Shown here in pieces: positions 9,981-25,827 of a stretch of DNA of 25,827 bases. Location of the stretch: the IMG/VR virus record IMGVR_UViG_3300045988_153208; one strand, 5' to 3'. The notes under the pieces are model-generated. The model was not told the DNA's origin and did not search any database. It saw only the letters and a list, made by a program, of their open reading frames with translations. Each line of letters opens with the position of its first letter. Within the stretch, counting starts at the first letter, position 1. The stretch comes from a virus. Made by a program: the position numbers and the translations under genes.

Positions 9981-10001
9981 TTTATTATCTCCTTTTTCTC
10001 T

Positions 10002-10040: not shown

Positions 10041-10065
10041 TTAAACAATAGTTATATTAAGGTTT

Positions 10066-11175: not shown

Positions 11176-11192
11176 TATTCTTCTCTCCTTTC

Positions 11193-12128
11193 TTACGCAA
11201 TACGTAGAATCTTAGCGCCACGTTGTCCATCAGGCATAGTATATACCTTAACAACCTGCCACTTCATATCCTGACTCTCATCTTTTACAAGAATTCCGTC
11301 AGCAGCTGCTGGAGCTAAAATATCACCAACAGAAACACTATCTTCATTAATCATATTAGTAGTATAATGATCACCAACATTAGTCTTGAAGACACGAGGA
11401 ACCATTGCAGTGCCTGGAGTCATACGCTTCTCATGATAAACACCAAGCTTCTTATATGGATCATTAGTCCAAGTCAGCTCTTCGTAAATGTCAGCAACAT
11501 CAGTTAGAACCTTATCATAAGCATACTTTACAGGCACAGGAGTCTTAGTCTGATTGGTCTTAGGATCAATCTCATACTCTACACCATTATAAGTAAACTT
11601 ATTGTCCTTAACATCATAAACTTCGCCAGCGATGGTAACAGTCTTTAGACCCTGATCTAAAGCAACAGTGTGCTCAAGCACCTTGTGATCAGCACCAGTT
11701 TCATCAACACCATTCCAGAAACGTCCACCATATTCAACCTCGGTATGCTCCCAATCGTATGGAGAATAAATACGAGCCTGATAGTCGTCCTTTAGCATAG
11801 CAAATTCGCAATCCCACTGCTTAGTTCCATCAGGATGATCGCGATATAACTTAATCTCATTATAAACTAGCATCCACTCGCCCTTGCCAGTAAAATTCAC
11901 TTCACCAATACCATTGGCATTAGCAGCGTAATCATACTTGACAAACTGACCGTTTTCAAGAATATTAATACCCTTGTTAGCAGGCAACTGAGCATAAATT
12001 TGAGCGGTTCTTTGTGCAGACAGGTGATTTGGCTCAACCTGACCATAACCAAACTCAACATACTTAGCCTGTGACTTAGGTGGATTTTTACCAACGCCTA
12101 AACGAGAATTTAAAAAATCCTTAAACAT
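11193..12128 (-). CDS. Capsid-associated protein, 311 aa. Decoration-like by position between scaffold and capsid; could alternatively be the major capsid protein.
   Basis: Complete uninterrupted ORF. ATG at 12126-12128 with AAGGAGG. TAA at 11193-11195. Confidence 0.55.
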   Translation of the reverse strand: MFKDFLNSRLGVGKNPPKSQAKYVEFGYGQVEPNHLSAQRTAQIYAQLPANKGINILENGQFVKYDYAANANGIGEVNFTGKGEWMLVYNEIKLYRDHPDGTKQWDCEFAMLKDDYQARIYSPYDWEHTEVEYGGRFWNGVDETGADHKVLEHTVALDQGLKTVTIAGEVYDVKDNKFTYNGVEYEIDPKTNQTKTPVPVKYAYDKVLTDVADIYEELTWTNDPYKKLGVYHEKRMTPGTAMVPRVFKTNVGDHYTTNMINEDSVSVGDILAPAAADGILVKDESQDMKWQVVKVYTMPDGQRGAKILRIA

Positions 12129-12146
12129 TTAAGTATGTCCTCCTTA

Positions 12147-13736: not shown

Positions 13737-13747
13737 GATTTACCTCC

Positions 13748-15409
13748 TTAATTCATTGACTCTTTATTTTTTATGGTTTTTTCACTTTTCTAATCATCAG
13801 CCTTTTCAGGTCGCCCAGACTATTTTGTTTCAGTAGTCTGTTTTGTAGTAGTCTATTGATTACTACTTCCTGAATTATTTTGTGTTTTATTCTAATTGTT
13901 TGAACCTTTATTACCCAAAACATCTTGACTACTCATAGTAGAAGACATTAATGGTGGGATCATAATTTCAGTTAATTTCAACACATCATTTTCAAATACC
14001 GCAGTATTTAAAATAAAACTCTAAGAGTGACCAAGAGCAATTTGAGGTAGCATCTTAGAATAACCAAGTTGCGTTTGTTCTTTATATAATTTTGACATTT
14101 CTTTATAATTATATTGTGTAGTTTCAAGCATATAAAATTTAAAACTATATTTCTTATTGTTCGCAACTTTCATCTTTACTATTCTATCAAAAAAAATGTT
14201 AAATTGCAACAACAAGTTTCTAACAGTTGATTCATCATTAAGGATAGACTTCTCTAATGATAAATTACCATCAGTATTAAATAGATTTTGAGAAATACCT
14301 AAATTATTATAAACAGTACGTTCAACTTTTGCTAAATCATCTGTAGTAGTTGTAGTATTTTTATCTGATAAATCAATAGATTGAACATCAGTAAATGTTG
14401 TTAAAACATCAACACCAATAGCTCTTGATAACATAGCAACAGCATTATTATGTATGTCACGAGATTCATCAATATCAAATATTAAATCGCCATTTTTATC
14501 CATTGGAAGTTTTTGAACAATAATTTTTAACAACTTCTACATTTGTTTTCTGCGGTCTAAATCTTGAGCAGCATCTAAATCCATAAGAGCAGGGATAGAA
14601 TTAATAAATGGTGGGACATCACTACCATTAAAATTAAATTTCACACTTAATTCTGGAGATAGTAAATACCAACTTCCACTATAATCTCCCTTAATATCAG
14701 GAAGTAATTTTCCTTTCTTATATAAAACATATCCGCGCTAAAATTCTTCGGGGAATAATTTTAATACGCGCATACGATAATTAGGATCTGGAAACTAATC
14801 AAAAAACCGCATGTCAAACTCAATCGCTGGCATACCAGCCACAAAATATCTAGAACGGCAATAACTAGCAGGTAATTCTTGTAGCATTAAACTATTTGCA
14901 GATTGCACTATATATCCATAATAACAACCATTTTTCATAATACTTTGAGCAATATCACCGCAGATTTTTTTAATATAAGTATTATCTAAATAATTTAATA
15001 ACTTTGAAAAATCTTTTAAAACTTTTTCATCTTTTACTGTATCATCTAAAATCTCTGGAGCGACATACCAATCATATCTATACAAATAAGCAAAATAATT
15101 ACATACTCGCTCATAAATGCCGCTTATATCATAAAATAAATTAGAAATTCTACGCATTTCAACAATATCACGATTTATCATAGCTCGTAATACATCATTT
15201 TTAGTGACCATGCGACATGGTCCACGACGATTAGGATATAGCCGAGCAAATGACCCTAAATCTAATACAGCATCATCTAATGTTTGAACCCCAACTTTTA
15301 TTTTACGATATTCTGTTGGATCAGCAGTTCGATAATCACTTGTTCCATTGCTGATATTAAATCCTTTGGAGTGGATGATTTCCTAACGTGATAATTCTTT
15401 AGTATCCAA
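13748..15409 (-). CDS. Portal protein, 553 aa, with a Q/T/N/S-rich C-terminal tail and multiple in-frame TAGs.
   Basis: Putative TTG start at 15407-15409, 7 nt after AAGGAGG. Same frame as ORF-track 14795..15211 and 14021..14533. Hand translation continues to TAA 13748-13750. Located between terL and scaffold. Sequence FYDISGIYERVCNYFAYLYRYDWYV is portal-like. Confidence 0.55.
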
Positions 15410-15421
15410 AATTCCACCTCC

Positions 15422-15778
15422 TTAATATCCAGCTAATTGCATTATATAATCATATGTAATAAGATTTTCATCTGTATAAGGAATCTCTATTAATTTAAAA
15501 TCATGTAAAGCACAAAAACGTCGTTTTTGATTATCATTATATTGTTGTTGATATAAACCTTTTTTACCACCAAATTTTGCGCTAGGCTCATAATGCTATT
15601 TACCCTAATATTCAATAATAAAATCAATTCTACCATCATCATCAAAAACGACAAAATCGAAACGTAAGGGTCTGCCACTTGGTGCCTTCAAATCTGGGAA
15701 AATATACTCCATCTTAAATGGTAATTCAGCTTGTCGCAAAATCTCTTCAATTTTAATTTCGCCTCTAGACGCTCTCAT
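15422..15778 (-). CDS. Small Vsr/DUF559-like (PD-(D/E)xK) endonuclease, 118 aa. Possible free-standing homing endonuclease between terL and portal. Two in-frame TAGs.
   Basis: ATG at 15776-15778 with GAGGAGG. Translation ...LRFDFVVFDDDGRIDFIIEY[TAG]GK[TAG]HYEP... carries a D..(I/V)E..G..H-type motif. TAA at 15422-15424 overlaps the portal RBS. Confidence 0.35.
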
Positions 15779-15788
15779 AATTACCTCC

Positions 15789-17522
15789 TCAATTCAAGAA
15801 ACACCAATCTTTAGCATTAAACTTTTTACGTTTCTTCTTTTTATCTTCTTCTAATTTTAAATAATATAGTCCATATTCAAAAGCAGAAAATTTATCTTTT
15901 CGGATACTTTTATTTGCTTGTTTCAGGATAATATTTACTCCTTCAGTTTCTTCACGCAAATTCATCATTTCTTCTTTTAATATGGAAGTTAATGTAAATG
16001 GTTTTAATTCTTCTGCCCTCTATTCTGGAGTCATAGTTTGACCTTTCTTTTTAGCAAGAAGTTTATTTTTTGCTACGCGCTCATCAATTAAAAATTTCAC
16101 TTTTCCAGAAGCAAGTTGTGATTTAGCAATCGCGTGAGCTTCTGTATTAAGTGGCGCATTAGCTTTTATAATATACATAGCATCTAATACTGTATTAGAT
16201 GTTTTATATTTTTTATAAAATAAATCATCGTCATTAACAACACCAAAATCAGGGAAAATTTCATTGGTTTCAGGATCAATCTACGTCTTAACCATGTAAT
16301 CAATTAAACCAATTCCTAAACCATTACCATCAATTACAATTCTATCAGCATTATATTTATAATATAATTTTTTTAATTTAATAGTTTGGTCTTCAAAATG
16401 TTCATCAGATAATGTATATATATTCACTAGACTTTTAATCGACCCACCTTGTGATTGTGGAGTTACTTTAAATACACAAATAACTGAATCGCATCCTTTA
16501 CGACCAACGTCGACAGCAAGTACATAAGATGCTAATTTTGAATTACGCCCGGATGCTTCATATTCAGGCTAATTTAATATTCTATTTCTATCAAATATTT
16601 CAGCATTAAAAAATGCATCTTCTACAGTGCCAGACCATTTACTTTCATATTCTCGATCAAATGAACTTTCATTGAACGTTCCGTCCATTTTTAGGTCTTT
16701 AATAAAATTCGCATCTAATAATTTCATTAAAACAGGAATACGATAAGTACCACCCATAATAATAGATTGCTAAGGTTTAACAATCTCCCAAACTAATAAT
16801 TGGATTAATTTATCATAGGGGAAAGTATTTTTATATCCAGCAGTAGTAATATAAATTTGAGATTTATTAAGAGTTTCATCAGGTTGAGTAGTACCATCCA
16901 TACACATACGAGAAATATTCATTGTAGGAATAATAACTTGTGATAGAATATCACCATCAACACCAACACACTCTTCAATTAAACCACCATGGCGACGTTT
17001 ACCACGAGAAGACTCTCTTGCAGCAATATTATCAAAATATGAACCATTTTTAAATACATATTTAACATAATCTTTACCTTCAAGAGTTTGACCACGGCGC
17101 CAATCTATTTCTTTCTAAAATGCAGGAATAAGAGTACAAATTTCTTGAACTTTTTCTTTTACAATTCCAGCCGCTTGTTCTTTACCTCCAGAAGTAATAA
17201 ATAATTTACATCTGGGATATAAAATCGCACGACACATTAAGACCATCATTGACAAAAAAGATTTTGAATAAGCACGAGGGAATACAGCATAAATATATTT
17301 ATGACGCATCGCAGCGCGCAAAAAGATTCTCTAATAAAAATAGAGTTTAAAATGTTGAGGGCCGCCATCAGGTCCTGCCATGAAGTCGATAAACATATCT
17401 GGGTATTCTCTCCAAAAGGCTATGTACTATCTTGCTTCTGGTATAATTGCACGAAGACGGTCCTCTGAAATTCCAATCTTTTTACGCTTCTAAGATAAAT
17501 CAAGTAAATCCTATAAAGCCAT
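15789..17522 (-). CDS. terL: Terminase large subunit, about 577 aa, with multiple in-frame TAGs.
   Basis: ATG at 17520-17522 (AAGGA RBS). Same frame as ORF-track 17115..17321 and 16569..16757. Contains a Walker-A-like motif (AVFPRAYSKS), an ..RHGGLIEE.. segment, and a C-terminal nuclease-like region. TGA at 15789-15791. Confidence 0.6.
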
Positions 17523-17523
17523 A

Positions 17524-18720
17524 TTATCCTTCTAAATTTCTTAAAGTCTGAGCATCTATTTCAGATTCTTCCTCAAGGAAATCATTATATTCAATTAAAT
17601 CTTCATCTTTAAGATGATCGATTTCCTCCATCGTTAAATCTTCTTCAATATCTTGGTCTTCTTCTTTATTTTCTTCTTCTTGCATTTTCTTAATAGCCCC
17701 TTCAATGAGATTACCTAGATTCATCTCTTCAGTGACTAATGTGTGTGTATAATTCTTTAAATCTTGTAAAGTTTCATCAACTTTATCTTTTGGACCTTCT
17801 GTATAATACCGAGGGATAAATCCTTCAGTCTCACACATGGCTACTAATTCTCCAATAGAATCAAATGCTTCTCCTGTATCTGCTTTGTTTTGAGCGGCGG
17901 TGAAATTACCTGATTTCATTAGACTATCATAAACCTTGCTCATCTTTTGGAAACCTTCGATATCACCAATATCGATCAACTAGTTTGCTTTTAAGGATGT
18001 CTTACAAATTAATTTTAATGTATCAATATGACCAGCGCCGCGGATATCATAAGAACTCATCATTTCTTCATAGAGTTGCTCTAGTTTAACCCATTCTTCG
18101 GGTTTATACGCTTTACCCCACTTCATACGAAGATATAAAATATCTTCTTCTGTTAAATCGAGGTCATCTGCTGGGTCATGTTCAATACCATTCTATTGAT
18201 CAAAATAATCATCACCATCTCTAAAACGTTCTGGTAATTCAGGAGTGTAAGGTTTTAATTCTTCTTCTGGAATAGCGACAGTAGATTTAGCAATAGCTGT
18301 TGCTATTTGCTGGGCATCATAACCTTGTCGTTTCATAGTTTGTTCTAATTTATTATTAGCCACTTCCTATAAAAACTCAGAATCTTTCCATCGATAATCT
18401 CTATATTGTTTAAGTTTCATTTTGGACAAATATCTACCTAAAATACTCATACCAGTTAATTTAGATTTATCTTGTCCATATTTTACCATCAATTTACTCC
18501 ACTCATCTGGAACATAAGGTACATCAATTTCTTGTAGAATCCACATATAAGTTTCTGGATTCCAATTATCTACAAGCATTGTAATACATTTTTTACATTG
18601 AGGGAGTTTTCCATCATTTGGATATTTTTCTAAATTATTAGATGTATAAAACTGGTCAGCGCCCATAGTTCTATTACATCGTTCGCAATAATATACTTTT
18701 TTATCATTATCTACAGTCAT
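17524..18720 (-). CDS. 398-aa protein with an N-terminal Cys4 zinc ribbon (CERC..x23..CKKC) and a very acidic C-terminus. Possible terminase small subunit or DNA-packaging partner. In-frame TAGs at 18367, 18193 and 17980.
   Basis: ORF-track 18367..18720 and 17524..17979 are in the same frame. Hand translation of 17980-18366 shows no TAA/TGA. TAA at 17524-17526 sits immediately before the terL ATG. Confidence 0.4.
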
Positions 18721-18756
18721 AATTTTCCTCCTTATATCTATCCAATAACAGGCATC

Positions 18757-19827
18757 TCAAAATTATAACTGTTTGCCCTTGTTTTTAGCATTACGGCATT
18801 TTTTACAAATACTATAATAACCATCTTTACTAGTTTTATTTTTGCTAAAATATTTATTATGTGCTAATTTAATTTGCCCACAGCGACTACATTTTTTATA
18901 TTTACCTTTTGCTTTATGTAAATAATAATCATATAGGTATTGGTCTTCAGCCGCAGAGGCGATTAATTTTGGAATTTTATTGCGCCATAAACTAGAAATA
19001 TATTCTAAACTATGAGTAATATTAAATTCCTCTTGAATTTTCTTTTGAATGTCTATATTCTATAATCCATCAATTTTATATTCAACTATTCTATCATATA
19101 AGGGATAATCTTTAAGAGCAATGGTACATAAATTATCGAAATCTTCCATAATATACCATAAATCTCTTTCAAAATCTCCCCAACTATCTTGCTTTAAACG
19201 AGAATAATTACATAAAATTGCAGAACATACTCTAGGGTCTAAGAGTGAAACGCCATCCGGAATTGGATAACCATCATCATCAAAAATGCAAGTCGTGTCC
19301 TCTAATGGAATAAAATTTCTTGAACGAGTAATTTTAGTCATAACAATTGGACGACGAACTGCATTTTTAATAACATACTAATCTTTACGCATTTCAATAA
19401 TAGCACGTTTAATTATAAATGCTTCGCGTCCTTCACTAACTCGTAATTTGGCTTCCCAAGTAGTAATGGCGTCTCTTAACTATTTTAAATGAGGTATTTC
19501 TTCTATATCTTTTTTAGTAATTGTAATCTTAGGCTAAAATATTGTATTTTTATTTTCAGTAATTAAATTATAAATTCCATCTTCGCCATTCTCAAATTGG
19601 GAAACAAGACCTTCAAAAGATGTTTCACGCTTATTAACTGTTGCCATACGATTATCAGTTAATAATTTACGCTCCTTTTTCTCTTGTTTCTCCATACAAA
19701 GAATGATATAGTCCCCTAATATTTCTAAATATCGAGGAGAGGGGTCTGGGGTTTCCTCTAATATTTTCTTGACTAATTCATTTCTTTCTTCTGGAGTTTG
19801 TAAGGAATAATCTAATTTTATCATCAT
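18757..19827 (-). CDS. 356-aa hypothetical protein with a C-terminal Cys4 zinc ribbon (CSRCGQ..x17..CKKC). First gene of the leftward operon. Four in-frame TAGs.
   Basis: ORF-track 19534..19827 and 19060..19341 are in the same frame, joined through TAGs at 19534, 19480 and 19378. TGA at 18757-18759. ATG at 19825-19827 with GGAGG. Confidence 0.45.
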
Positions 19828-19852
19828 TACCTCCAGATTTTTTTACGTCTTC

Positions 19853-19965: not shown

Positions 19966-19995
19966 TATTATAATAAAAAATAAAAGGAGAAGTTT

Positions 19996-20394
19996 ATGGT
20001 AATTGCTATTATTATATTAAGTATATTATTAATATTATCTATTATATATAATATATTGTTTACAAAAGGAGTCGCTAAACTTCTTGACCCTGAAAACATT
20101 GAACAAAAATATAATTTAATAGCAGATTATTATGGAGATGCAAATAACATTGAAGAAAGTTTCCCTTGTTGTTTGCTATTACATCTCCAATTTAATGCGA
20201 AGGAATCCGCAAAAATCACAGACTTCTCTAATTATGAAAATTCTAATATAATCGCTTATTCAGTTTTGTCCAAGGGCCCGCCACCGCCTGGATACGCCAA
20301 TCAACTGGAAGAAGACGGCTCTATAAGAATATTAGTCCACAATGTTCGAGTAAATAAATATAAGGATGGTGAATATTTTTGGGAGCCTATGTAA
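19996..20394 (+). CDS. Membrane protein, 132 aa (N-terminal transmembrane helix, PPPPG motif).
   Basis: Complete ORF with good RBS. Hydrophobic N-terminus VIAIIILSILLILSIIYNILF. Confidence 0.6.
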   Translation: MVIAIIILSILLILSIIYNILFTKGVAKLLDPENIEQKYNLIADYYGDANNIEESFPCCLLLHLQFNAKESAKITDFSNYENSNIIAYSVLSKGPPPPGYANQLEEDGSIRILVHNVRVNKYKDGEYFWEPM

Positions 20395-20585
20395 TTGTTA
20401 TCTTTTGGATAATCATTTCAGCATTAGTAATGTTTGAATATATTGATGCAATTCAAAGCGCCGGTGAAAATAAATTAATTGTTTGTCTAATATTTTTTAT
20501 TGGTGGCCCAATATTTGCTGCGAGTGATTTATTACAAAGAATTTTAGATATATTTTTACCGGAAGGGTGGAATGGTGATGACTGA
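20379..20585 (+). CDS. Small two-TM membrane protein, 68 aa (TTG start).
   Basis: ORF track; AAGGATGGTGA upstream. Overlaps the preceding gene by 16 nt. Confidence 0.4.
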   Translation: MGAYVIVIFWIIISALVMFEYIDAIQSAGENKLIVCLIFFIGGPIFAASDLLQRILDIFLPEGWNGDD

Positions 20586-20604
20586 AAAATAGATTAAATA
20601 TATT

Positions 20605-20904
20605 TTGAAAAATTTTAAACGAGGCACTACTATTCTATTTATGGGTGTATCATTTAATCAATATATTAATCTTGAACAATTAACTGAAGCAGGATATACT
20701 TGTATTTTATTGGGTGAAGGTCAAGATTATTGGCCATATATTCAAGATAATATGATTATTTATGTGGATAATATTGATATTAAAATTATGCGATTAAATT
20801 GTTATCCATTACATTGCCCTATTTTTGTATCTGATAGAAATCGAGTAATAAATGCAGAAGATAGAGATGTGCGCGTTTGGGCAGAAGTGTTAAAAGAGGA
20901 GTAA
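20605..20904 (+). CDS. Hypothetical protein, about 99 aa (start uncertain: TTG 20605 or ATG 20641).
   Basis: ORF track; tightly packed operon. Confidence 0.45.
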   Translation: MKNFKRGTTILFMGVSFNQYINLEQLTEAGYTCILLGEGQDYWPYIQDNMIIYVDNIDIKIMRLNCYPLHCPIFVSDRNRVINAEDRDVRVWAEVLKEE

Positions 20905-20905
20905 T

Positions 20906-21199
20906 ATGAAAATTTATAAATATTTAATTGAAACTCCAGGGTCAACTCATATTATGGACCATCTGACTGATATTGTATCTACTGGATTAGATGTAAATAA
21001 TAATCCATGCGTATGGGCAGTTTATGATGAAAAAGTACCCAAAAAATATTTTCAAATTAATGCTGTTGGCACAGGTTGGGAATTGGATAAATATGTAAAT
21101 AATAATGACAAGTATTTAGGAGTTATTAATGATGGTGAGTATATTTGGCATATCATTAAGTCTTCTGGAGAAAAATGTCATATAATGGAGGAGAAGTGA
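20906..21199 (+). CDS. Hypothetical protein, 97 aa.
   Basis: ORF track; RBS AAAGAGGAG immediately upstream. Confidence 0.55.
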   Translation: MKIYKYLIETPGSTHIMDHLTDIVSTGLDVNNNPCVWAVYDEKVPKKYFQINAVGTGWELDKYVNNNDKYLGVINDGEYIWHIIKSSGEKCHIMEEK

Positions 21200-21203
21200 T
21201 TTT

Positions 21204-21521
21204 ATGGAAGATGGAAAAAATTATTTTGATATTGTAATGCGAGAAGGCCAAGCAATAGTTCATAATGAAGGTTCTATTCATTAGGTTGATAGTTTAGGCC
21301 GTCTTGTTTTTCCTAAAAATTTAAGACAAAAATATGGTATTACTCCTGGTGACCGCATGGAATTTTATACTATTGAATATAATGGTGAAGTTTATGTTGG
21401 AGTGCGAGTGAGTAAACGATATGGTAGTAGAATAGAGTATTTACGCGCTAAAGAAGTATTAGATGATTTGGGAATTGAGATTCCTCAAAAACTAACTGAT
21501 GCTATTAATGGAGTAATGTAA
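21204..21521 (+). CDS. AbrB/MazE/SpoVT-family (swapped-hairpin) DNA-binding protein, 105 aa, with an in-frame TAG at codon 27 (21282-21284).
   Basis: GGAGGAG RBS. Hand translation MEDGKNYFDIVMREGQAIVHNEGSIH[TAG]VDSLGRLVFPKNLRQKYGITPGDRMEFY... carries the classic VDxLGRxVIPKexR..GI..GD motif. TAA at 21519-21521. Absent from the ORF track because of the TAG. Confidence 0.55.
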
Positions 21522-21522
21522 T

Positions 21523-21666
21523 ATGCCTAAGTATAAAAGTTTTGGAAATGCCCTCGCTGCTAAAATGCAGAAAAAGGCTAATTATTATGCTACTAAAGCA
21601 GTTCATCAAATTGTATGGGGTGAAAACCCTAAACGTGGTCGTCCTAAGAAGGAGAATAAGAAATGA
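21523..21666 (+). CDS. Small basic protein, 47 aa (..GRPKKENKK).
   Basis: ATG at 21523 with GGAG 9 nt upstream. Stop TGA overlaps the next ATG. Confidence 0.35.
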   Translation: MPKYKSFGNALAAKMQKKANYYATKAVHQIVWGENPKRGRPKKENKK

Positions 21667-21746
21667 TTCTTGAAGCATTGGCATTAATAGGATTAATTCT
21701 ATTTTTTCCTATCTGGTTTTTTGGTAGAAATAAAATTAAAAAGTAA
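21663..21746 (+). CDS. 27-aa hydrophobic peptide (MILEALALIGLILFFPIWFFGRNKIKK).
   Basis: ATG at 21663 with AAGAAGGAG RBS. Single predicted TM segment with a basic C-terminus. Confidence 0.35.
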   Translation: MILEALALIGLILFFPIWFFGRNKIKK

Positions 21747-21956
21747 TTCTTTTTACCGTTATCTGAATTGAAAAAAGTTTTGGTGAGAGTTTGTACCAGC
21801 CAAACAAAAAAATAAAAATCAAAAAAAATTTTTTCCCGAAACCCACCCCCCCGGTCGGTTTTTATCTGAGAAAAAATCTGAACACTATCGAGACCTTCTT
21901 GGGCTTGGCGCACGCGGAAAGGCTAGACCATCCCCAATACAGCCCCTCAACTCGCA

Positions 21957-21981
21957 GGACCGCGAATGGCTGTCGCGGTCC
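21957..21981. other. Perfect 9-bp stem-loop (GGACCGCGA-atggctg-TCGCGGTCC) with no U-tract, about 60 nt upstream of the tiny-peptide promoter.
   Basis: Inverted repeat read directly from the sequence. Confidence 0.5.
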
Positions 21982-22041
21982 TCATTCACAATAAATACAA
22001 ACTCCACAAAAAATCTCTCGCAAATTTGTGTATTCTGCCAA

Positions 22042-22070
22042 TAGACACGCATCCTGAAATCTGGTATAAT
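22042..22070 (+). promoter_or_regulatory. Promoter TAGACA-N17-TGgTATAAT driving the 31-aa peptide gene.
   Basis: TAGACA at 22042-22047, TATAAT at 22065-22070, with an extended -10 TG. Confidence 0.5.
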
Positions 22071-22095
22071 AGTATTATCAAAGGAGGAATGGTCT

Positions 22096-22191
22096 ATGTC
22101 TATCATCTACAAAGTCGTGCGCTTCATCACCGCGGTCGCTGTTGTCGCGGGCACTGGCATCCTGATGTGCCTCATCTGCCTCCCTCATTGA
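22096..22191 (+). CDS. 31-aa hydrophobic peptide (MSIIYKVVRFITAVAVVAGTGILMCLICLPH), its own transcription unit. Small membrane peptide, possibly type-I-toxin-like.
   Basis: AAAGGAGGAA RBS 8 nt before ATG 22096. TGA at 22189-22191 lies inside the terminator stem. Confidence 0.5.
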   Translation: MSIIYKVVRFITAVAVVAGTGILMCLICLPH

Positions 22192-22204
22192 GGGAGGTTT
22201 TTTG
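22179..22204 (+). terminator. Intrinsic terminator CCTCCCT-cattg-AGGGAGG plus T6.
   Basis: Perfect 7-bp GC-rich stem followed by TTTTTT. Confidence 0.7.
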
Positions 22205-22210
22205 TTGCCC

Positions 22211-22291
22211 TAAGATTGTTAAAAATTTAACGATGTAGCAAGATTGTTAAAAGATTAACAATGTAGCAAGATTGTGAAAGATTTAACAATC
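22211..22291. repeat. Three tandem about 28-bp repeats (tAGCAAGATTGTTAAAArtTTAACaATG), each containing the palindrome TTGTTAA-N4-TTAACAA.
   Basis: Copies at 22211-22235, 22236-22263 and 22264-22291, read directly. Confidence 0.8.
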
Positions 22292-22295
22292 ACTC

Positions 22296-22400
22296 AACCA
22301 AGAGAGGACAAGGACACGCACGGCACAGTGGACAAGGCAAAGCGAGCCAACGAGCGAGCGACCAACAGACAAAGAGAACAACAACACAACACAACACAAT
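22296..22400. other. About 100-nt tract almost devoid of T on the plus strand (A/C/G only; CA and CAA repeats, ACAACAACACAACACAACACAA).
   Basis: Direct reading; extreme strand composition skew. Confidence 0.8.
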
Positions 22401-22408
22401 GATAGATA

Positions 22409-22430
22409 CATTGTTAATGTATTAACAATG
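22409..22430. promoter_or_regulatory. Operator-like palindrome CATTGTTAAT-gt-ATTAACAATG (10-bp perfect arms) between the two skewed tracts.
   Basis: Direct reading. Confidence 0.6.
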
Positions 22431-22432
22431 TA

Positions 22433-22505
22433 GTATAGTAGTATGGTATGGTATGGTAGGGTATGGGGTGGGGTGGGCTATGGGTAGTGGGTAGGGAGAG
22501 AGAGT
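22433..22505. other. About 73-nt C-free G/T/A tract with TATGG/TAGGG repeats and a G-quadruplex-type motif (GGGGTGGGGTGGGCTATGGGTAGTGGGTAGGG).
   Basis: Direct reading; four or more GGG runs separated by 1-5 nt. Confidence 0.75.
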
Positions 22506-22726
22506 AGACCAACAATAAGAGATGCGGACGCGCTTCCCACCGGTCGGCTCACCGGGAACCGCGCACAACAAATCTAATGTAAGTATTCTATTTCTCTTTT
22601 GGGTTCATCATCGTTAACGGCCCTAATCGCCCAAGAATAAGCCCTCGCACAATTGCCAAACAACACAGCAGGGCAGGCGCTGAACCGCGCGTATCCCGCA
22701 ACACACAGCTCTCACAGAGGAGCGAG

Positions 22727-22753
22727 CAAGATTGTTAAAAGTTTAACAATGTG
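22727..22753. promoter_or_regulatory. Operator-like palindrome copy (CAAGATTGTTAAAAGTTTAACAATGTG).
   Basis: Matches the repeat consensus. Confidence 0.55.
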
Positions 22754-22840
22754 AGAGCCAAGAGCAAGAGAGTAAAGAGTGCGCTTGCACAGGTAGCAAG
22801 GAGGATACACACGGCACAGTTGATACATTCGCTGACCGAG

Positions 22841-22866
22841 CAAGATTGTTAAAAAATTCACAATGT
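22841..22866. promoter_or_regulatory. Operator-like palindrome copy (CAAGATTGTTAAAAAATTCACAATGT).
   Basis: Matches the repeat consensus. Confidence 0.5.
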
Positions 22867-22890
22867 GTGGATGTGGTGAAGTCGCTGTTT

Positions 22891-22911
22891 AATTGTTAAA
22901 AATTTCACATT
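22891..22911. promoter_or_regulatory. Degenerate operator-like copy (AATTGTTAAAAATTTCACATT).
   Basis: Partial match to the consensus. Confidence 0.4.
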
Positions 22912-22990
22912 CGCTGTTGGATGCCGAACACGGTCGCAACGCCCCAGACTTCACCACATTAAAGTGTTAAAGAAAAAAAATTGCAAATGC

Positions 22991-23012
22991 GATTGTTAAA
23001 ATAATCACAATC
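22991..23012. promoter_or_regulatory. Operator-like copy (GATTGTTAAAATAATCACAATC) about 40 nt upstream of the promoter at 23054.
   Basis: Matches the consensus. Confidence 0.5.
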
Positions 23013-23053
23013 TTCATCCCGAAAATAAATAGGTTATTTTTGAAAAAACCTCT

Positions 23054-23081
23054 TGACAAATTGCCCTATGTGTGCTACAAT
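23054..23081 (+). promoter_or_regulatory. Promoter TTGACA-N16-TGcTACAAT for the two-gene operon 23112-23550.
   Basis: TTGACA at 23054-23059 and TACAAT at 23076-23081. Confidence 0.55.
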
Positions 23082-23111
23082 GATTACAGTAAAACAAAGG
23101 AGGACGATACA

Positions 23112-23348
23112 ATGTCTAACATCTATGGAGTCTGCTACACCACGAAAGAGCCTGTTGTCTACAACAGAGGGACACAGTGGGAGAAAACCTGTTCCGATTT
23201 CCTGTTCGTTCAGGCAAACAAGGACAATGGCACAAAGCTGGTGGACAAGCTGAACGCTATGCTTGCCGCAGGTGTGGAAAAGTACGAACTGCTGGACATG
23301 ACCAAGATTGACCATTTCTATCTTGACAAGTCCGAGGAAATGTATTAA
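23112..23348 (+). CDS. Hypothetical small protein, 78 aa.
   Basis: AAAGGAGGAC RBS and ATG at 23112. No in-frame TAG. TAA stop. Confidence 0.6.
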   Translation: MSNIYGVCYTTKEPVVYNRGTQWEKTCSDFLFVQANKDNGTKLVDKLNAMLAAGVEKYELLDMTKIDHFYLDKSEEMY

Positions 23349-23361
23349 GGAGGAACTGACA

Positions 23362-23550
23362 ATGACACGCACTATCGCTAATACCTACATCTGTATCAAC
23401 AACGAGGGACAGATGCTCTCCATCATTGCCCGCACGGGCAACGAAGCCCATAACATCGCAATAGGGTTTTTGCGGAAAGCAAACATCGTGAGCGTTCGCC
23501 GTGTATTCAAGTCTGGCAAGCTGGGCAAGGAAATTCTGAAAATTAAATAA
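23362..23550 (+). CDS. Hypothetical small basic protein, 62 aa.
   Basis: TAAGGAGGAA RBS and ATG at 23362. TAA stop followed by the terminator. Confidence 0.6.
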   Translation: MTRTIANTYICINNEGQMLSIIARTGNEAHNIAIGFLRKANIVSVRRVFKSGKLGKEILKIK

Positions 23551-23554
23551 AATA

Positions 23555-23584
23555 AACAGGGCGCAAGCCCTGTTATTTTTTTTA
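23555..23584 (+). terminator. Intrinsic terminator AACAGGGC-GCAA-GCCCTGTT plus T9 (GNRA tetraloop).
   Basis: Direct reading. Confidence 0.75.
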
Positions 23585-23603
23585 TAAAATGCGAAAAAAA
23601 CTA

Positions 23604-23632
23604 TTGACAAATATAAATAAGCGTGTTATAAT
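23604..23632 (+). promoter_or_regulatory. Promoter repeat copy P1: cTATTGACAAATATAAATAAGCGTGTTATAAT (TTGACA-N17-TGtTATAAT).
   Basis: TTGACA at 23604-23609 and TATAAT at 23627-23632. About 90% identical to the copies at 24022 and 25281. Confidence 0.6.
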
Positions 23633-23664
23633 GAATACAGAAATTAAGAAATGAGGTACACAAA

Positions 23665-23853
23665 ATGAAGAACATCTATGAAATCGAGAACATCATCGAC
23701 GAAATCCCCGCTGATGATTGGGCTGGCATTTGTAATCTGATGGACTACTACTATCAGTCGAATTTCTCCGCTGACGCTGAACAGAGACTGGCAAGGGCAA
23801 TCGCTCCTTACGGCTTGACCGCAGAGGAAATCCTGACCTGGGACGCTGAATAA
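23665..23853 (+). CDS. Small acidic protein, 62 aa.
   Basis: RBS AAATGAGGTACACAAA and ATG at 23665. TAA at 23851-23853 lies in the terminator loop. Confidence 0.55.
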   Translation: MKNIYEIENIIDEIPADDWAGICNLMDYYYQSNFSADAEQRLARAIAPYGLTAEEILTWDAE

Positions 23854-23868
23854 GCGTCCTATTTTTTT
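23841..23868 (+). terminator. Terminator GGACGC-tgaataa-GCGTCC plus T7.
   Basis: Direct reading. Confidence 0.6.
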
Positions 23869-23876
23869 GCTGTTGG

Positions 23877-23896
23877 ATTGTTAAAATTTTAACGAG
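23877..23896. promoter_or_regulatory. Operator-like palindrome copy (ATTGTTAAAATTTTAACGAG) between the terminator and the antisense promoter.
   Basis: Matches the TTGTTAA-N4-TTAAC consensus. Confidence 0.5.
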
Positions 23897-23933
23897 CATC
23901 GTCGCGCTCATCAGGCACGTGGCGCCCCGAAAT

Positions 23934-23963
23934 ATTATACCACAACAGTCCACCAGTTGTCAA
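23934..23963 (-). promoter_or_regulatory. Minus-strand promoter (TTGACA-N18-TGgTATAAT) firing antisense toward the 3' end of gene 23665..23853.
   Basis: The rc of 23958-23963 is TTGACA. The rc of 23934-23942 is TGGTATAAT. Confidence 0.4.
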
Positions 23964-24021
23964 GAGAAAAATACGAAAATTTCGCACAAAATTTGCTATC
24001 CCGATTTGTATAGTTTGCCAA

Positions 24022-24050
24022 TAGACAAAATGAAATAAGCGTGTTATAAT
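24022..24050 (+). promoter_or_regulatory. Promoter repeat copy P2: TAGACAAAATGAAATAAGCGTGTTATAAT.
   Basis: TAGACA at 24022-24027, TATAAT at 24045-24050, with extended TG. Confidence 0.55.
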
Positions 24051-24083
24051 GAGTACAACAAAACAACAAAGGAGATACACACA

Positions 24084-24392
24084 ATGATTAACATTCGTTC
24101 TATCCGCAAGCTGGGCAACAATGACGGGCTGACCCTCAAAATGGGCAAAAAGGTAAACTATAAATCCGGCTGGCAAGTTGCCACAGAGGGCATCGAGTGC
24201 AAGACCGCACAGGAAGCCATTGACGCGGTGAGAGACTACGGCGGCAATTGTGGCGTGTGGTTCAGTGAGGGCGTGTATTACATCGACAAAAGCAAGCGCG
24301 TGGCGACAAAGCGTGAAGCTATGGAAATCGGCAAAGCGTGTAATCAAATTTCCGTGTTGAAATGGGCAACTATGACGCTTGCCTACTGCTAA
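24084..24392 (+). CDS. Hypothetical protein, 102 aa.
   Basis: AAAGGAGATACACACA ATG. TAA stop followed by the terminator. Confidence 0.6.
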   Translation: MINIRSIRKLGNNDGLTLKMGKKVNYKSGWQVATEGIECKTAQEAIDAVRDYGGNCGVWFSEGVYYIDKSKRVATKREAMEIGKACNQISVLKWATMTLAYC

Positions 24393-24396
24393 AATA

Positions 24397-24423
24397 ATAG
24401 GGCGAAAGCCCTATTTTTTTTTG
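24397..24423 (+). terminator. Terminator ATAGGGC-GAAA-GCCCTAT plus T9.
   Basis: Direct reading; GNRA loop. Confidence 0.75.
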
Positions 24424-24443
24424 AAAAAATTTCAAAAAAGGTA

Positions 24444-24472
24444 TTGACAAATCCCGAAATAGGTGCTATAAT
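24444..24472 (+). promoter_or_regulatory. Promoter TTGACA-N17-TGcTATAAT.
   Basis: TTGACA at 24444-24449 and TATAAT at 24467-24472. Confidence 0.55.
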
Positions 24473-24502
24473 TAAACCATCAAAAGAGAGGAGCTAAACG
24501 CT

Positions 24503-24694
24503 ATGACAAACTTTGAACAGTATCTCGAAAACCTGATGGGTATGAAGAAAGCGGAAATCATCAATGAGGGCATCACCTGGGGCATCTGGGCGAACACCGA
24601 GGGCAACAAAGCCGAGTTGATGAAATGGAAAAAAGTTCTGCTGGCGCGTTCCCTCGCCGATAGGCTGGAAAGACTGGAAAGGCGGGGCTACTAA
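24503..24694 (+). CDS. Hypothetical protein, 63 aa.
   Basis: AGAGAGGAG RBS and ATG at 24503. TAA stop. Confidence 0.6.
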   Translation: MTNFEQYLENLMGMKKAEIINEGITWGIWANTEGNKAELMKWKKVLLARSLADRLERLERRGY

Positions 24695-24695
24695 G

Positions 24696-24722
24696 ACAAG
24701 GGCGAAAGCCCTTGTTTTTTTT
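24696..24722 (+). terminator. Terminator ACAAGGGC-GAAA-GCCCTTGT plus T8.
   Basis: Direct reading. Confidence 0.75.
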
Positions 24723-24773
24723 ATATGGCATTATGCCCATAATTCGGTTGAAAATTTTGGTGATTTTGCCTAT

Positions 24774-24801
24774 TGACATTCTGCCCCATTTGTGTTATAC
24801 T
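24774..24801 (+). promoter_or_regulatory. Promoter TTGACA-N16-TGtTATACT with no ORF immediately downstream. It transcribes into the GC palindrome and toward the next cassette.
   Basis: TTGACA at 24774-24779 and TATACT at 24796-24801. Confidence 0.45.
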
Positions 24802-24804
24802 CGG

Positions 24805-24831
24805 TCGCGCGCCCACGGTCCTGGCGCGCGA
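24805..24831. promoter_or_regulatory. GC-rich palindrome TCGCGCGCC-cacggtcct-GGCGCGCGA lying between face-to-face promoters.
   Basis: Perfect 9-bp inverted repeat. Confidence 0.6.
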
Positions 24832-24839
24832 AATTTACC

Positions 24840-24868
24840 ATTATACCATGTCCCAGCAATTTTGTCAA
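24840..24868 (-). promoter_or_regulatory. Minus-strand promoter (TTGACA-N17-TGgTATAAT) facing the 24774 promoter and firing antisense toward gene 24503..24694.
   Basis: The rc of 24863-24868 is TTGACA. The rc of 24840-24848 is TGGTATAAT. Confidence 0.45.
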
Positions 24869-24926
24869 TAGGCAAATCAAACAAAAATCATACATTCCAA
24901 ATCCCGAAATTTGTGCATTTTAACTA

Positions 24927-24955
24927 TTGACATTCATACGCCCCTGTGCTATACT
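24927..24955 (+). promoter_or_regulatory. Promoter TTGACA-N17-TGcTATACT.
   Basis: TTGACA at 24927-24932 and TATACT at 24950-24955. Confidence 0.55.
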
Positions 24956-24984
24956 GTATACATAAAACAGAGGAGGTCATGAGT

Positions 24985-25257
24985 ATGACGCGTGAGTACA
25001 AGATTAGGTTCATCGACAGCGAGGCGCAGTATAGCGAGACTGCTACTGCTCAGTGGGACACCGACACCAGTATATGCGATTTCCTTGAAGAACAGCTGTA
25101 TATTCAGTGGGAACTGCGCCCTCTGGAAAGATACTGGCAGAGAGAGTTCTGCACCAAAGGCTGGACGCGGTTTATATATGGTCTATATGAGCAGTTCTCC
25201 GTGTCTTATGACTGGGACAACTCCAATATCATTACCGTTGAAAAAATCCGAAGCTAA
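24985..25257 (+). CDS. Hypothetical protein, about 90 aa (alternative start ATG 24979).
   Basis: AGAGGAGG at 24971-24976. The ORF track's longer N-terminus (from 24946) lacks an RBS. Confidence 0.55.
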   Translation: MTREYKIRFIDSEAQYSETATAQWDTDTSICDFLEEQLYIQWELRPLERYWQREFCTKGWTRFIYGLYEQFSVSYDWDNSNIITVEKIRS

Positions 25258-25270
25258 TTCGGATTTTTTC
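25245..25270 (+). terminator. Terminator TCCGAA-gctaa-TTCGGA plus T6, overlapping the stop codon.
   Basis: Direct reading. Confidence 0.6.
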
Positions 25271-25280
25271 ATTTTTTCTA

Positions 25281-25309
25281 TTGACAAATACAAATAAGCG
25301 TGTTATAAT
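25281..25309 (+). promoter_or_regulatory. Promoter repeat copy P3: TTGACAAATACAAATAAGCGTGTTATAAT.
   Basis: TTGACA at 25281-25286 and TATAAT at 25304-25309. Confidence 0.6.
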
Positions 25310-25338
25310 TGTATTATCAAATGAGGGAGGTATTCAAG

Positions 25339-25560
25339 ATGGAATACTCAGTAGTAGTCAATAATGTTGAGGTCGTGCGCGTGAGCGGTGATGAAGCCGC
25401 GTGGAACAAATTTGAAACGGCGTGTGAGCTGGTGCGGCTGATGCTGGCTGATGGCGGTTTTGGTGAAGCGTGGGCAGAACTCCGCGAGATGAACGGCGAG
25501 CCTATCGCCCGCTTTGATGAAAACGGTATGAGCGAGTGCGGCGCAGTCCGCGGAATGTGA
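25339..25560 (+). CDS. Small acidic protein, 73 aa.
   Basis: GAGGGAGG RBS and ATG at 25339. TGA stop overlaps the next RBS. Confidence 0.55.
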   Translation: MEYSVVVNNVEVVRVSGDEAAWNKFETACELVRLMLADGGFGEAWAELREMNGEPIARFDENGMSECGAVRGM

Positions 25561-25570
25561 GGTGCGACAA

Positions 25571-25768
25571 ATGGACGCTAAGGGATTTACATTTTGCGGC
25601 GGGGCTGATGAACGGGATGTTCTCCGCTACGGCGAGTATCTGACCGATGAACAGTATACCACGTGGGATAGCCACTATTACCGCCTGCGCGCTATCCGCT
25701 ACAATGGCAAGCTGTACTGGCACAAGATGGTGGACGGCGAACTGGTTGAATTTAAGGTTTTGAAATGA
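25571..25768 (+). CDS. Hypothetical protein, about 65 aa, translationally coupled to the upstream gene.
   Basis: GAGGTG 6 nt before ATG 25571. TGA at 25766-25768 lies inside the terminator. Confidence 0.5.
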   Translation: MDAKGFTFCGGADERDVLRYGEYLTDEQYTTWDSHYYRLRAIRYNGKLYWHKMVDGELVEFKVLK

Positions 25769-25793
25769 GCCAAATTTTGGCTCATTTTTTTTG
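25766..25793 (+). terminator. Terminator TGAGCCAAAA / TTTTGGCTCA plus T8.
   Basis: Direct reading. Confidence 0.7.
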
Positions 25794-25805
25794 TGCATTT
25801 TGACT

Positions 25806-25827
25806 ATTGACAAAATAAGCATTTTTA
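25806..25827 (+). promoter_or_regulatory. Start of another promoter-repeat copy (cTATTGACAAAATAAGC...), truncated by the window end.
   Basis: TTGACA at 25807-25812. Shares the ATTGACAAA..ATAAGC motif of P1-P3. Confidence 0.4.

Follow-up and report, generated by a model that had tools for sequence, protein, structure and literature searches.

A probable early region of small-gene cassettes beside the TAG-recoded late module of a large SPbeta-like gut phage

Background

T4-type phages carry PeSL cassettes, each joining a sigma-70-type early promoter to a stem-loop, in their hyperplastic regions (Arbiol et al. 2010, PMC2839356; Comeau et al. 2014, PMC4122927). These strong early promoters, paired with stem-loop terminators, are repeated many times amid small non-essential ORFans, and indels and replacements between near-identical phages are bounded by the motifs and proceed via homologous recombination. 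The large Firmicute phage SPO1 has a host-takeover module of mostly small early genes in short operons with strong promoters and ribosome-binding sites, and several of the products shut off host processes (a 1998 study, summarised in PMC6873191). In gut phages that use genetic code 15, recoding of the stop codon is limited to the modules for late structural proteins and lysis (Borges et al., bioRxiv 10.1101/2021.08.26.457843; Peters et al. 2022, PMC9523058); these phages read TAG as Gln in structural genes, keep their early genes compatible with the host code and have recoded modules scattered over about 200 kb. Here we describe a locus that resembles each of these systems in part: positions 21750-25827 (the block) of a 25,827-nt stretch of viral DNA, IMG/VR record IMGVR_UViG_3300045988_153208, which as a whole is called the window. 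The block is a genuine feature with well-defined limits, and in general terms its identity is plain: a hyperplastic region of early-gene cassettes in a recoded SPbeta-like gut phage. More specifically, it is probably the proximal end of an early compartment transcribed by the host RNA polymerase, in a phage of 100-200 kb whose late genes read TAG as Gln.

Two further systems are similar in some respects. The first-step-transfer (FST) DNA of T5/BF23 (PMC10644984) carries small pre-early genes and has a long non-coding border rich in direct and inverted repeats; its freedom from restriction sites sets the sensitivity to restriction-modification, and a deoxynucleotidase is among the early functions. 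In SPbeta, which is of a related phage type, the short operator-like motif SPBRE of the MrpR system is repeated in intergenic regulatory DNA (PMC10516654). For comparison we used loci of related metagenomic phages (named Lnnn where one has to be singled out), seen with 10-kb flanks; the overlapping loci of six relatives were merged.

Results and discussion

Promoters, small genes and terminators of the block

Sigma-70/sigmaA promoters were scored as TTGACA-N17/18-TATAAT at 11/12 or better with a TG at -15/-14 (extended -10). Ten sites qualified in the 4.1-kb block, compared to none in the remaining 21.7 kb and none in 300 Markov shuffles of the block. A first-pass annotation, made by a model from the sequence alone, had assigned nearly every open reading frame (ORF) or pair its own promoter; eight plus-strand sites were found as it would predict, but two sites on the minus strand had been overlooked (Table 1). 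All nine ORFs (31-102 aa) are preceded at 6-10 nt by a GGAGG-type Shine-Dalgarno sequence (SD), in agreement with that annotation, as are the seven intrinsic terminators (hairpin plus T-run) on the plus strand, three of which have the form AGGGCG(A/C)AAGCCCT (repeat family D12). Its claim of three near-identical promoters held for those at 23601 and 25278, which are about 31/32 identical, but the one at 24019 shares only the 18-nt AAATAAGCGTGTTATAAT (spacer and -10) and has TAGACA as its -35. A supposed fourth copy at 25806 does not belong with them: this promoter is of another type and forms the left arm of a further face-to-face element (see below).

Terminators and promoters are also combined with each other. 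The AGGGCG(A/C)AAGCCCT terminator and its T-run are followed within 25-35 nt by TTGACA-17-TGnTATAAT at 23555-23632 and 24396-24472, and the same pairing is seen with a different hairpin at 25239-25309. In relatives, the roughly 18 kb of the corresponding block contain about 50 small ORFs and some 35 strong promoters on the plus strand; the late module has no such promoters.

Among close relatives, 181 of the 277 distinct substitutions in these ORFs (65%) fall at codon position 3, a pattern found in every ORF, the 31-aa peptide included. This concentration indicates that the tiny ORFs are real genes under purifying selection. Long minus-strand ORFs in the block (e.g. 23889-24347) were considered and rejected as antisense shadows, as SDs, promoters, terminators and the third-position pattern all lie with the plus-strand ORFs.

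Cassette turnover at the repeated modules

Promoters and SD-led ORFs were annotated in the window and in six genomes of a clade with 98% identical terminases, and the proteins were then clustered. Whole cassettes clearly vary among these close relatives in presence, copy number and order, and all examined junctions, which are of five kinds, fall in regulatory modules (terminator, promoter/5' untranslated region (UTR) or promoter-hairpin). An extra 44-aa cassette in three genomes is flanked by a duplicated terminator-promoter-5'UTR segment reaching up to the ATG (window equivalent 23556-23672). The 62-aa acidic cassette has been lost from one genome by a terminator-to-terminator join (23583/23860) and from L119 by a join of promoter-UTR to promoter-UTR (23675/24021). 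L113, L116 and L117 have lost three cassettes via the join of two AGGGCGNAAGCCCT terminators (23580/24692), and in L116 and L117 the 102-aa gene reappears at another place in the order. Finally, cassettes 5-6 (24927-25788), which are bracketed by the face-to-face elements A and B, are absent as a unit from three close relatives. In these three genomes one chimeric element remains, whose left part matches A and whose right part matches B. The switch point lies at three different places in the shared core, which is what repeated independent homologous recombination would leave.

The first-pass proposal that the repeated boxes serve as recombination linkers is thus confirmed, since gains, losses and moves break inside the modules and the chimeras have three crossover points. 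Likewise, the comparison with related genomes that it had suggested shows both cassette number and cassette order to vary, with junctions in the repeated modules. As judged by these alignments, the unit of turnover is the individual cassette and not the block.

The recombination behaviour thus agrees with that of PeSLs in T4-type phages in every functional trait compared, namely a composite motif, its concentration amid small ORFs, and indels bounded by it; homology to T4-like sequences was not found. The lineage and the sequences are unrelated, the present phage being SPbeta-like with Firmicute-type extended -10 promoters. Its homology patch in addition includes a conserved 5'UTR and SD, its second module consists of facing promoters across a covarying hairpin, and the block also departs from the rest of the genome in GC content at codon position 3 (GC3), code use and palindrome content. 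With structural genes of SPbeta type (YonD_N, YonG_N) and a terminase whose nearest matches come from phages of Firmicutes (Enterococcus, Geobacillus), the recombination modules are an analogue of PeSL and not a member of that family.

The last base of the window, which lies in a repeated promoter element, is also the last base of ERZ27261223 k119_14822, a near-identical (99.98%) contig from an independent assembly. Further related contigs, several in number, likewise break off within the early block, one or more of them at a promoter-hairpin element. The repeats, together with cassette polymorphism, are a probable cause of interrupted assemblies in this phage group.

Face-to-face promoter-hairpin elements

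In element A, two promoters face each other with their -10 boxes 38 nt apart and a GC hairpin inside that spacer. The hairpin begins 3 nt past one -10 and stops 8 nt short of the other, and therefore either transcript would start in or at the hairpin. With the upstream A/T-rich parts included, the two arms form an inverted repeat of about 83%. Relatives have 5-6 copies of the element per 18 kb, and versions of it occur in lineages with terminase identity down to about 65%. The stem sequence varies among copies with pairing retained, both sides being changed in 6 of the 9 pairs; pairing was seen in 87.6% of cells, compared to 74% in shuffles and 25-44% when the partner column was slid. By this measure the hairpin is kept by compensatory (covarying) changes. 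We could not match the face-to-face element to any described family in a literature whose coverage was incomplete.

Each minus-strand promoter stands back-to-back with the next plus-strand promoter at about 58 nt. The one at 23963 is directed at a GC hairpin region and the ninth palindromic box (23877-23896), and it is repeated as a unit in L083. Possible roles of the minus-strand promoters are the provision of a 5' stabiliser, of an antisense RNA, of a polymerase-collision insulator, or of a palindrome that favours recombination.

The face-to-face units might also be autonomous elements resembling miniature inverted-repeat transposable elements (MITEs), or recombination sites of a phage enzyme, which drive cassette exchange instead of providing passive homology. 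Such a role would suit palindromic units of about 130 nt in this copy number (5-6 per 18 kb), with a hairpin kept by compensatory changes, that flank the indel of cassettes 5-6 and are conserved in distant relatives. However, the crossover points differ in the three genomes and fall anywhere in the shared core, as in general homologous recombination and not site-specific cleavage; other indels use terminators or promoter-UTRs without a face-to-face unit, and neither target-site duplications nor a transposase were seen. We consider this explanation quite unlikely and favour passive homology.

Genetic code and composition on the two sides of the border

Standard-code translation leaves the minus strand of 1-19842 in fragments, whereas reading TAG as sense gives a gap-free tiling by long ORFs and raises their total length from 3,541 to 9,233 aa; recoding TGA or TAA did not produce such a tiling of this strand. 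When the terminase was aligned with 20 relatives, Q accounted for 640 of about 1,290 residues at the TAG positions, followed by K with 117. From this alignment and the tiling, the late module uses code 15 with TAG = Gln. Within the terminase family some lineages have 5-13 in-frame TAGs and others none, and therefore the code has changed within the family.

The nine ORFs of the block contain no in-frame TAG and stop at TAA or TGA, and in larger sets of conserved ORFs from the early block 0-4 of about 30-40 have a TAG stop. TAG-dependent tiling, TAG facing Gln and TAG-free early ORFs are thus found together, as in the code-15 gut phages, and size, code and layout fit the 'Sapphire'-type clade by description only (bioRxiv 10.1101/2021.08.26.457843). 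The sections of that source used here differ from our observations in mentioning no GC3 split, promoter-cassette architecture or palindrome purging.

Two Pfam domains derived from SPbeta, YonD_N and YonG_N, are present on homologues of late genes nearby. Among cultured phages, the closest terminases (49-53% identity) belong to phages of Enterococcus and Geobacillus that are 134-142 kb long, and that of the TAG-recoded gut phage phAss-1 is 44% identical. Related metagenomic contigs measure 100-200 kb, several of them 190-200 kb.

In 500-nt windows, GC is 0.26-0.36 across most of 1-21500, with a bump of 0.44 at the capsid gene (10-12 kb), 0.376 at 21501-22000, and 0.40-0.46 from 22001 to the end; the corresponding block of relatives has 45-53% GC. 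The sliding-window computation thus shows a step and not a uniform GC. The first-pass estimate of a switch from roughly 30% to 50% at about 21.75 kb was right about the step (about 21.8 kb), but the plateau is about 44% (43-46%) and not 50%. GC3 is 0.21 in about 5,100 late codons, compared to 0.59-0.63 in the block ORFs and 0.60-0.63 in the same block of six relatives, each of which contributes 3,000-3,600 codons. Most of the shift is at synonymous sites, from TTA, ATT, GGT and GAT to CTG, ATC, GGC and GAC: late Leu is TTA in 60% and block Leu is CTG in 43%, while GGC rises from 16% to 59% of Gly and ATC from 10% to 59% of Ile. The CTG, GGC and ATC preferences noted earlier were borne out, but the AAG preference is absent (31% vs 35%, from a run with three ORF starts off by one).

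Early GC exceeds late GC by 9.5 points in TAG-recoded lineages (n=11) and by 2.4 in standard-code lineages (n=19; Mann-Whitney p=2e-5), a comparison of unique terminase loci with an uninterrupted terminase frame which, as these are not phylogenetically independent, is a lead and not a test. Late GC is alike in the two groups (about 0.34). An early-region GC excess is present in many lineages, and small or absent in several, including the most distant. In the merged relatives, the GC-rich compartment of about 18 kb is followed by a 2.5-kb island at 25-33% GC and then by high GC again. Because the genes of this low-GC island, which lie on the minus strand, contain TAG again, the genome is a mosaic of two classes in which TAG use goes with GC class. 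In L093 a low-GC stretch (17153-19080; 27-36% GC) lies within the early region, and two of its minus-strand genes contain 1-3 in-frame TAGs, which shows that code use and GC class change together at more than one place along the genome.

The step could in principle be an artefact, namely a chimeric assembly at about 21.75 kb in which an AT-rich phage was joined to an unrelated higher-GC element, as the abrupt change in composition and the end of the window at a contig end might suggest. The junction is, however, colinear at 99.98-100% in four other ENA/Logan sample assemblies, two of which are single-run Logan assemblies, and at 94-96% in seven IMG/VR contigs of 100-200 kb. The different sample accessions exclude a single shared source for the spanning assemblies. 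With at least four independent assemblies across the junction, a chimera is almost certainly the wrong explanation.

The first-pass annotation had instead taken the block for a horizontally acquired island. On that view the block would have come recently from a higher-GC donor and would not yet be homogenised, which suits the sharp 14-point GC step with its different codon usage, the confinement of most block proteins to the close clade and the clear movement of cassettes between genomes. Deviating composition is the one island trait found: presence is not patchy, and the border has no mobility genes, with no integrase, att site or tRNA there. The block is a compartment of about 18 kb at the same position in all close relatives, and its architecture, together with the GC step in many lineages, recurs down to about 65% terminase identity, as do the layout of late module and small-ORF array, the palindromic boxes, the face-to-face elements and the palindrome purge. 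Further on, segments of low GC with TAG alternate with TAG-free segments of high GC. The normalised tetranucleotide signature correlates at 0.90 within the block, and the block has its avoidance of CATG and GATC in common with the late module. Finally, 78 terminase loci showed neither a late module joined to other DNA at 21.75 kb nor a contiguous donor block. A recent foreign island is thus very unlikely, and a resident early compartment remains the better reading.

A palindromic box array at the border

The roughly 800 nt between the 31-aa gene and cassette 1 have no conserved ORF and hold most copies of a 20-bp palindromic box, ATTGTTAA-N4-TTAACAAT. Allowing up to 3 mismatches, the window has 10 matches (9 of them within 22215-23877), compared to 1.4 in shuffles. 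In several distant lineages, down to about 65% terminase identity, arrays of the box occur at the equivalent place, and the box is therefore a conserved cis-element. By analogy, the array could be an operator cluster (cf. SPBRE/MrpR, PMC10516654), an origin, or a border signal as at the edge of the T5 FST region (PMC10644984). It differs from the SPbeta system in that the palindrome is clustered eightfold in 800 bp at one border, whereas SPBRE is spread over about 10 promoters; a MrpR-like gene was not seen. The AbrB-like protein encoded nearby was considered as the binder and rejected as a consistent partner, as five lineages with 5-10 boxes have no homologue nearby.

The same region includes a 105-nt tract with a single T (22296-22400), followed by one box and by a G/T-rich tract (22436-22505) of GGTAT and GGGT repeats with G-quadruplex potential. 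Folding of the ORF-free regions gave no energy signal past local hairpins (z-scores -0.9 to +1.3), and a suspected CCCAC-GGTC motif was no more frequent than chance.

Palindrome avoidance and the prophage alternative

GATC occurs 30 times in 1-18198 and 0 times in 18199-25827. Ranked by depletion, the top nine tetramers in the 16.7-kb block of one relative are without exception palindromic (CTAG, GATC, GGCC, CATG, ACGT, ATAT, TGCA, AGCT and GTAC). Counts were compared with synonymous-codon shuffles that keep proteins and codon usage. The early ORFs contain 2 GATC where 41.9 ± 5.0 were expected, 7 GGCC (expected 37.5), 6 ACGT (23.2), 10 TGCA (31.2), 14 CATG (31.7) and 1 CTAG (7.3); in the late ORFs the observed/expected ratios are 0.47 for GATC, 1.07 for GGCC, 0.71 for ACGT and 0.66 for TGCA. 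GATC and CTAG above all are near-absent from 18199 on and throughout the 18-kb early block of relatives, with the late module mildly depleted. In most lineages GATC is depleted in the early region, and the remaining avoided sites vary by lineage, as expected from adaptation to the restriction systems of different hosts. The purge is the strongest indirect evidence that the early DNA must function while unprotected. It indirectly lends weight to an anti-restriction pressure, and with it to the anti-defence side of the first-pass reading, and is silent on protein function.

A region poorer in restriction sites than the remainder of its genome is thus found here as in T5. The two share no sequence similarity and have different hosts. 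In T5 the region is terminal, with a terminal repeat and two-step DNA entry at an injection stop signal; contigs of the present phage group end at repeats.

The purge also bears on whether the array is expressed from a prophage. The small genes would then be lysogen genes (immunity, exclusion, defence), and the boxes would be master-repressor operators like those of SPBRE/MrpR. This agrees with the SPbeta-like structural module, SPbeta being temperate (PMC10516654), with the operator-like box array at the border, and with recoded prophages keeping their lysogeny genes free of recoded stops, as stated in bioRxiv 10.1101/2021.08.26.457843. On the other hand, the avoidance of palindromes suits incoming naked DNA better than a host-methylated prophage. 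Only one cassette promoter has a box near it, so that about 35 consensus promoters would be constitutive in a lysogen. The roughly 40 kb covered contain no recognisable gene for an integrase, a repressor or an arbitrium-type system, genes for nucleotide metabolism and nucleases lie further along, and the matches in genome collections are binned contigs of metagenome-assembled genomes (MAGs) of at most 44 kb, among which no integrated copy was identified. Expression from a prophage is therefore unlikely.

Proposed function of the early compartment

Under the preferred reading, that of an early compartment, the host sigmaA-type RNA polymerase would on entry start transcription at consensus extended -10 promoters, of which there is roughly one every 500 bp. 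Every mini-operon has one or two tiny ORFs behind a strong SD and ends in an intrinsic terminator, and would be expressed simultaneously with the others and independently of them. The ORFs, being TAG-free and GC3-rich, would be readable by the unmodified host translation system, while the AT-rich, TAG-containing late genes would wait for the code-change machinery of the phage. The near-absence of 4-bp palindromes would fit DNA that survives host restriction before phage protection. The repeated modules (the terminator AGGGCGNAAGCCCT with its T-run, the promoter with its conserved 5'UTR, and the face-to-face pair around the GC hairpin) provide homology patches of 60-130 nt, and homologous recombination between them inserts, deletes and relocates ORF cassettes, as the comparative evidence shows.

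Host-type consensus promoters, the standard code, tiny genes and, further along in relatives, nucleotide-metabolism genes agree with the early or host-takeover character proposed in the first-pass annotation. In those relatives an NT5C deoxynucleotidase, an HD phosphohydrolase and a T5orf172-domain protein are encoded amid dozens of unassignable small ORFs. Predicted from this context, the small products are most likely host-takeover or anti-defence effectors. Two of them had been singled out as small and very acidic, which their pI values confirm (4.05 for 23665-23853 and 4.26 for 25339-25560), and a third acidic ORF (24985-25257) has a pI of 4.54. They resemble DNA mimics (Ocr, ArdA, anti-CRISPR proteins) in being small and acidic; no sequence similarity to these was found in Pfam, PHROG or PADLOC. 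The 62-aa acidic protein has four related clusters only, all near-identical and too few for an alignment. The 102-aa protein, with more than 5,000 homologue clusters, all unnamed, is alone conserved outside the close clade; for contrast, a late protein is 45-78% identical in every lineage. Compared with SPO1, we detected no sequence similarity; SPO1 is not known to have a code partition, has no reported compositional partition and carries its module in the terminal redundancy. Megablast of the block against GenBank phages gave no match. The host is probably a Clostridia-class Firmicute; matches in genome collections were short binned MAG contigs only, 6 of 11 being labelled Clostridia, Eubacteriales or Acutalibacteraceae, which is a weak hint.

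It should be underlined that several points weigh against this reading. The term 'early' follows from promoter type, code, gene content and analogy, and standard-code genes behind host promoters would equally suit expression from a prophage. The two perfect minus-strand promoters have a role that the proposed course of events does not predict. The ORF-free DNA at 22200-23050 also has 43-46% GC, and therefore translational selection alone is insufficient to explain the composition; that the codon usage of the block is adapted to the host is a conjecture. A tRNA and suppressor search of the window and 30 related loci, covering about 40 kb of a genome of about 200 kb, found a single tRNA-Arg and no suppressor tRNA. 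Searches of the block ORFs against Pfam, PHROG and PADLOC gave nothing usable for any of them, and a PDB profile search gave no match. The AlphaFold model of the 102-aa protein, built from 36 homologues, was poor (pLDDT 61), and its fold search in BFVD had no match at E<0.1.

A more far-reaching version, which we regard as rather unlikely, would see two regimes in one genome. One would be a landing pad, the first DNA exposed and perhaps the first delivered, as in T5, which is in the standard code, GC3-rich, purged of restriction sites and packed with consensus promoters; the other would be an AT-rich, TAG-recoded late regime, unreadable until the code switch. The box array at 22.2-23.0 kb would then be a border or control signal, and the face-to-face elements would be purpose-built sockets for exchanging effector cassettes. 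The early-late split is larger in recoded than in standard-code relatives. If the two-regime version were true, the GC3 split (0.21 vs 0.60) would be a direct signature of two tRNA/termination environments translating one genome.

Table 1. Positions of the modules, cassettes, promoters and other features along the window
Feature	Position	Strand	Remarks
Late structural module	1..19842	-	~30% GC, GC3 0.21, TAG = sense codon
Tape measure protein gene	1-3050	-	from late module translations
Putative major capsid protein gene	10069-11211	-	assigned from reading of the translation
Putative portal gene	13748-15421	-	assigned from reading of the translation
Large terminase gene	15789-17540	-	matches to terminases
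YonG_N-domain gene	17524-18756	-	Pfam domain recorded on homologues
Low-GC operon	19984..21746	+	in-frame TAG retained (translations)
DUF7352 gene	20906-21199	+	within the low-GC plus-strand operon
AbrB/MazE-type DNA-binding protein gene	21204-21521	+	TAG at codon 27
GC-richer TAG-free early compartment, first 4.1 kb	21750..25827	+	~18 kb in relatives
Decayed hairpin/promoter module	21956-22040	+	GC hairpin 21956-21982; minus-strand promoter relic
P(+) following the decayed module	22042-22070	+	TAGACA-17-TGgTATAAT; repeat family D4
31-aa hydrophobic peptide gene	22096..22191	+	GC3 0.75; terminator 22178-22198; 9/12 substitutions at codon position 3
ORF-free region with box array	22215..23011		eight copies of ATTGTTAA-N4-TTAACAAT
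Boxes	22215, 22243, 22271, 22410, 22731, 22845, 22892, 22992; 23877		ninth at 23877
Cassette 1	23053..23574	+	promoter 23053-23081; terminator 23555-23574 (AGGGCGCAAGCCCT)
Cassette 1 genes	23112-23348; 23362-23550	+	78-aa protein; 62-aa basic protein
Cassette 2	23604..23861	+	promoter 23604-23632 (12/12 with TG); terminator 23839-23861
Cassette 2 gene	23665-23853	+	62-aa acidic ORFan, pI 4.05; missing from some relatives
Minus-strand 12/12 promoter	23963-23934	-	-35 at 23963-23958, -10 at 23939-23934
Cassette 3	24022..24415	+	promoter 24022-24050; terminator 24396-24415 (AGGGCGAAAGCCCT)
Cassette 3 gene	24084-24392	+	102-aa basic protein; sole widely conserved block protein
Cassette 4	24444..24718	+	promoter 24444-24472 (12/12 with TG); terminator 24693-24718 (AGGGCGAAAGCCCT)
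Cassette 4 gene	24503-24694	+	63-aa protein
Element A	24755..24886		P(+) 24773-24801 (11/12 with TG); P(-) 24868-24840 (12/12 with TG)
Element A GC hairpin	24805-24831		9 bp; TCGCGCGCC / GGCGCGCGA
Cassette 5	24927..25271	+	promoter 24927-24955; terminator 25239-25271
Cassette 5 gene	24985-25257	+	90-aa acidic protein, pI 4.54
Cassette 6	25281..25788	+	promoter 25281-25309 (12/12 with TG); terminator 25762-25788
Cassette 6 genes	25339-25560; 25571-25768	+	73-aa acidic protein, pI 4.26; 65-aa protein
Element B, left arm	25790..25827	+	cut by the window end; repeat families D4, I4
Plus-strand promoters	22042, 23053, 23604, 24022, 24444, 24773, 24927, 25281	+	scan
Minus-strand promoters	24868, 23963	-	scan; both missed by the first-pass annotation

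Other observations

Between the late module and the low-GC plus-strand operon (19853-19965), two divergent consensus promoters, 19881(-) at 12/12 and 19937(+) at 11/12, both lack the TG motif. This segment lies at the minimum of the cumulative GC skew and is a candidate origin. With consensus promoters at this site, the recoded late operon may be transcribed by the host polymerase and restrained at translation. A small gene between terminase and portal (15422-15793) has a weak, sub-threshold match to DUF2726, a nuclease-like domain. In some relatives many stop codons break the terminase reading frame, and in the Enterococcus phages EF1/EF5 the terminase is split around an HNH homing endonuclease.

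In L091 (10560-11410; same contig as L079, about 11 kb beyond the window end) there is a run of 3-5 perfect promoters. Most are followed by a conserved leader, ATAATGTCAAGAGGGGAAC, and by GC-rich ORF-free sequence, the leader being complementary to the -35 region of the following promoter; the last promoter leads into a gene. These promoter-leader units may be small RNAs; they gave no Rfam match. For the block, Rfam gave no match at gathering thresholds and only sub-threshold ones, three of them over terminators, and for the whole early block of a relative none. A hammerhead-like CTGATGAG at 23905, spotted by reading, is without Rfam support.

Significance

The restriction of a recoded stop to late modules, with early genes in the host code, has already been described (bioRxiv 10.1101/2021.08.26.457843); low overall GC is discussed there as a precursor of recoding (Borges et al.). 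A GC3 split tied to code use, palindrome avoidance concentrated in the standard-code compartment and the face-to-face socket were not found in the literature covered, which was incomplete.

The locus brings three known ideas together in one genome, where they are mutually testable: temporal control through stop-codon recoding, host-takeover arrays, and the shuffling of cassettes at promoters and terminators. It also offers three testable oddities, namely the dual composition, the compartment-specific restriction purge and the convergent promoter-hairpin elements. The late and early compartments serve as internal controls, as one replicon in one host differs three-fold in GC3, ten-fold in GATC depletion and in code, and this contrast makes the AT-richness of recoded phages and their exposure to restriction directly measurable. 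Moreover, the cassette array is a catalogue of small putative effectors, presumably made in abundance, from an uncultured and very widespread gut phage group, and its sockets could be used for finding new cassettes in metagenomes.

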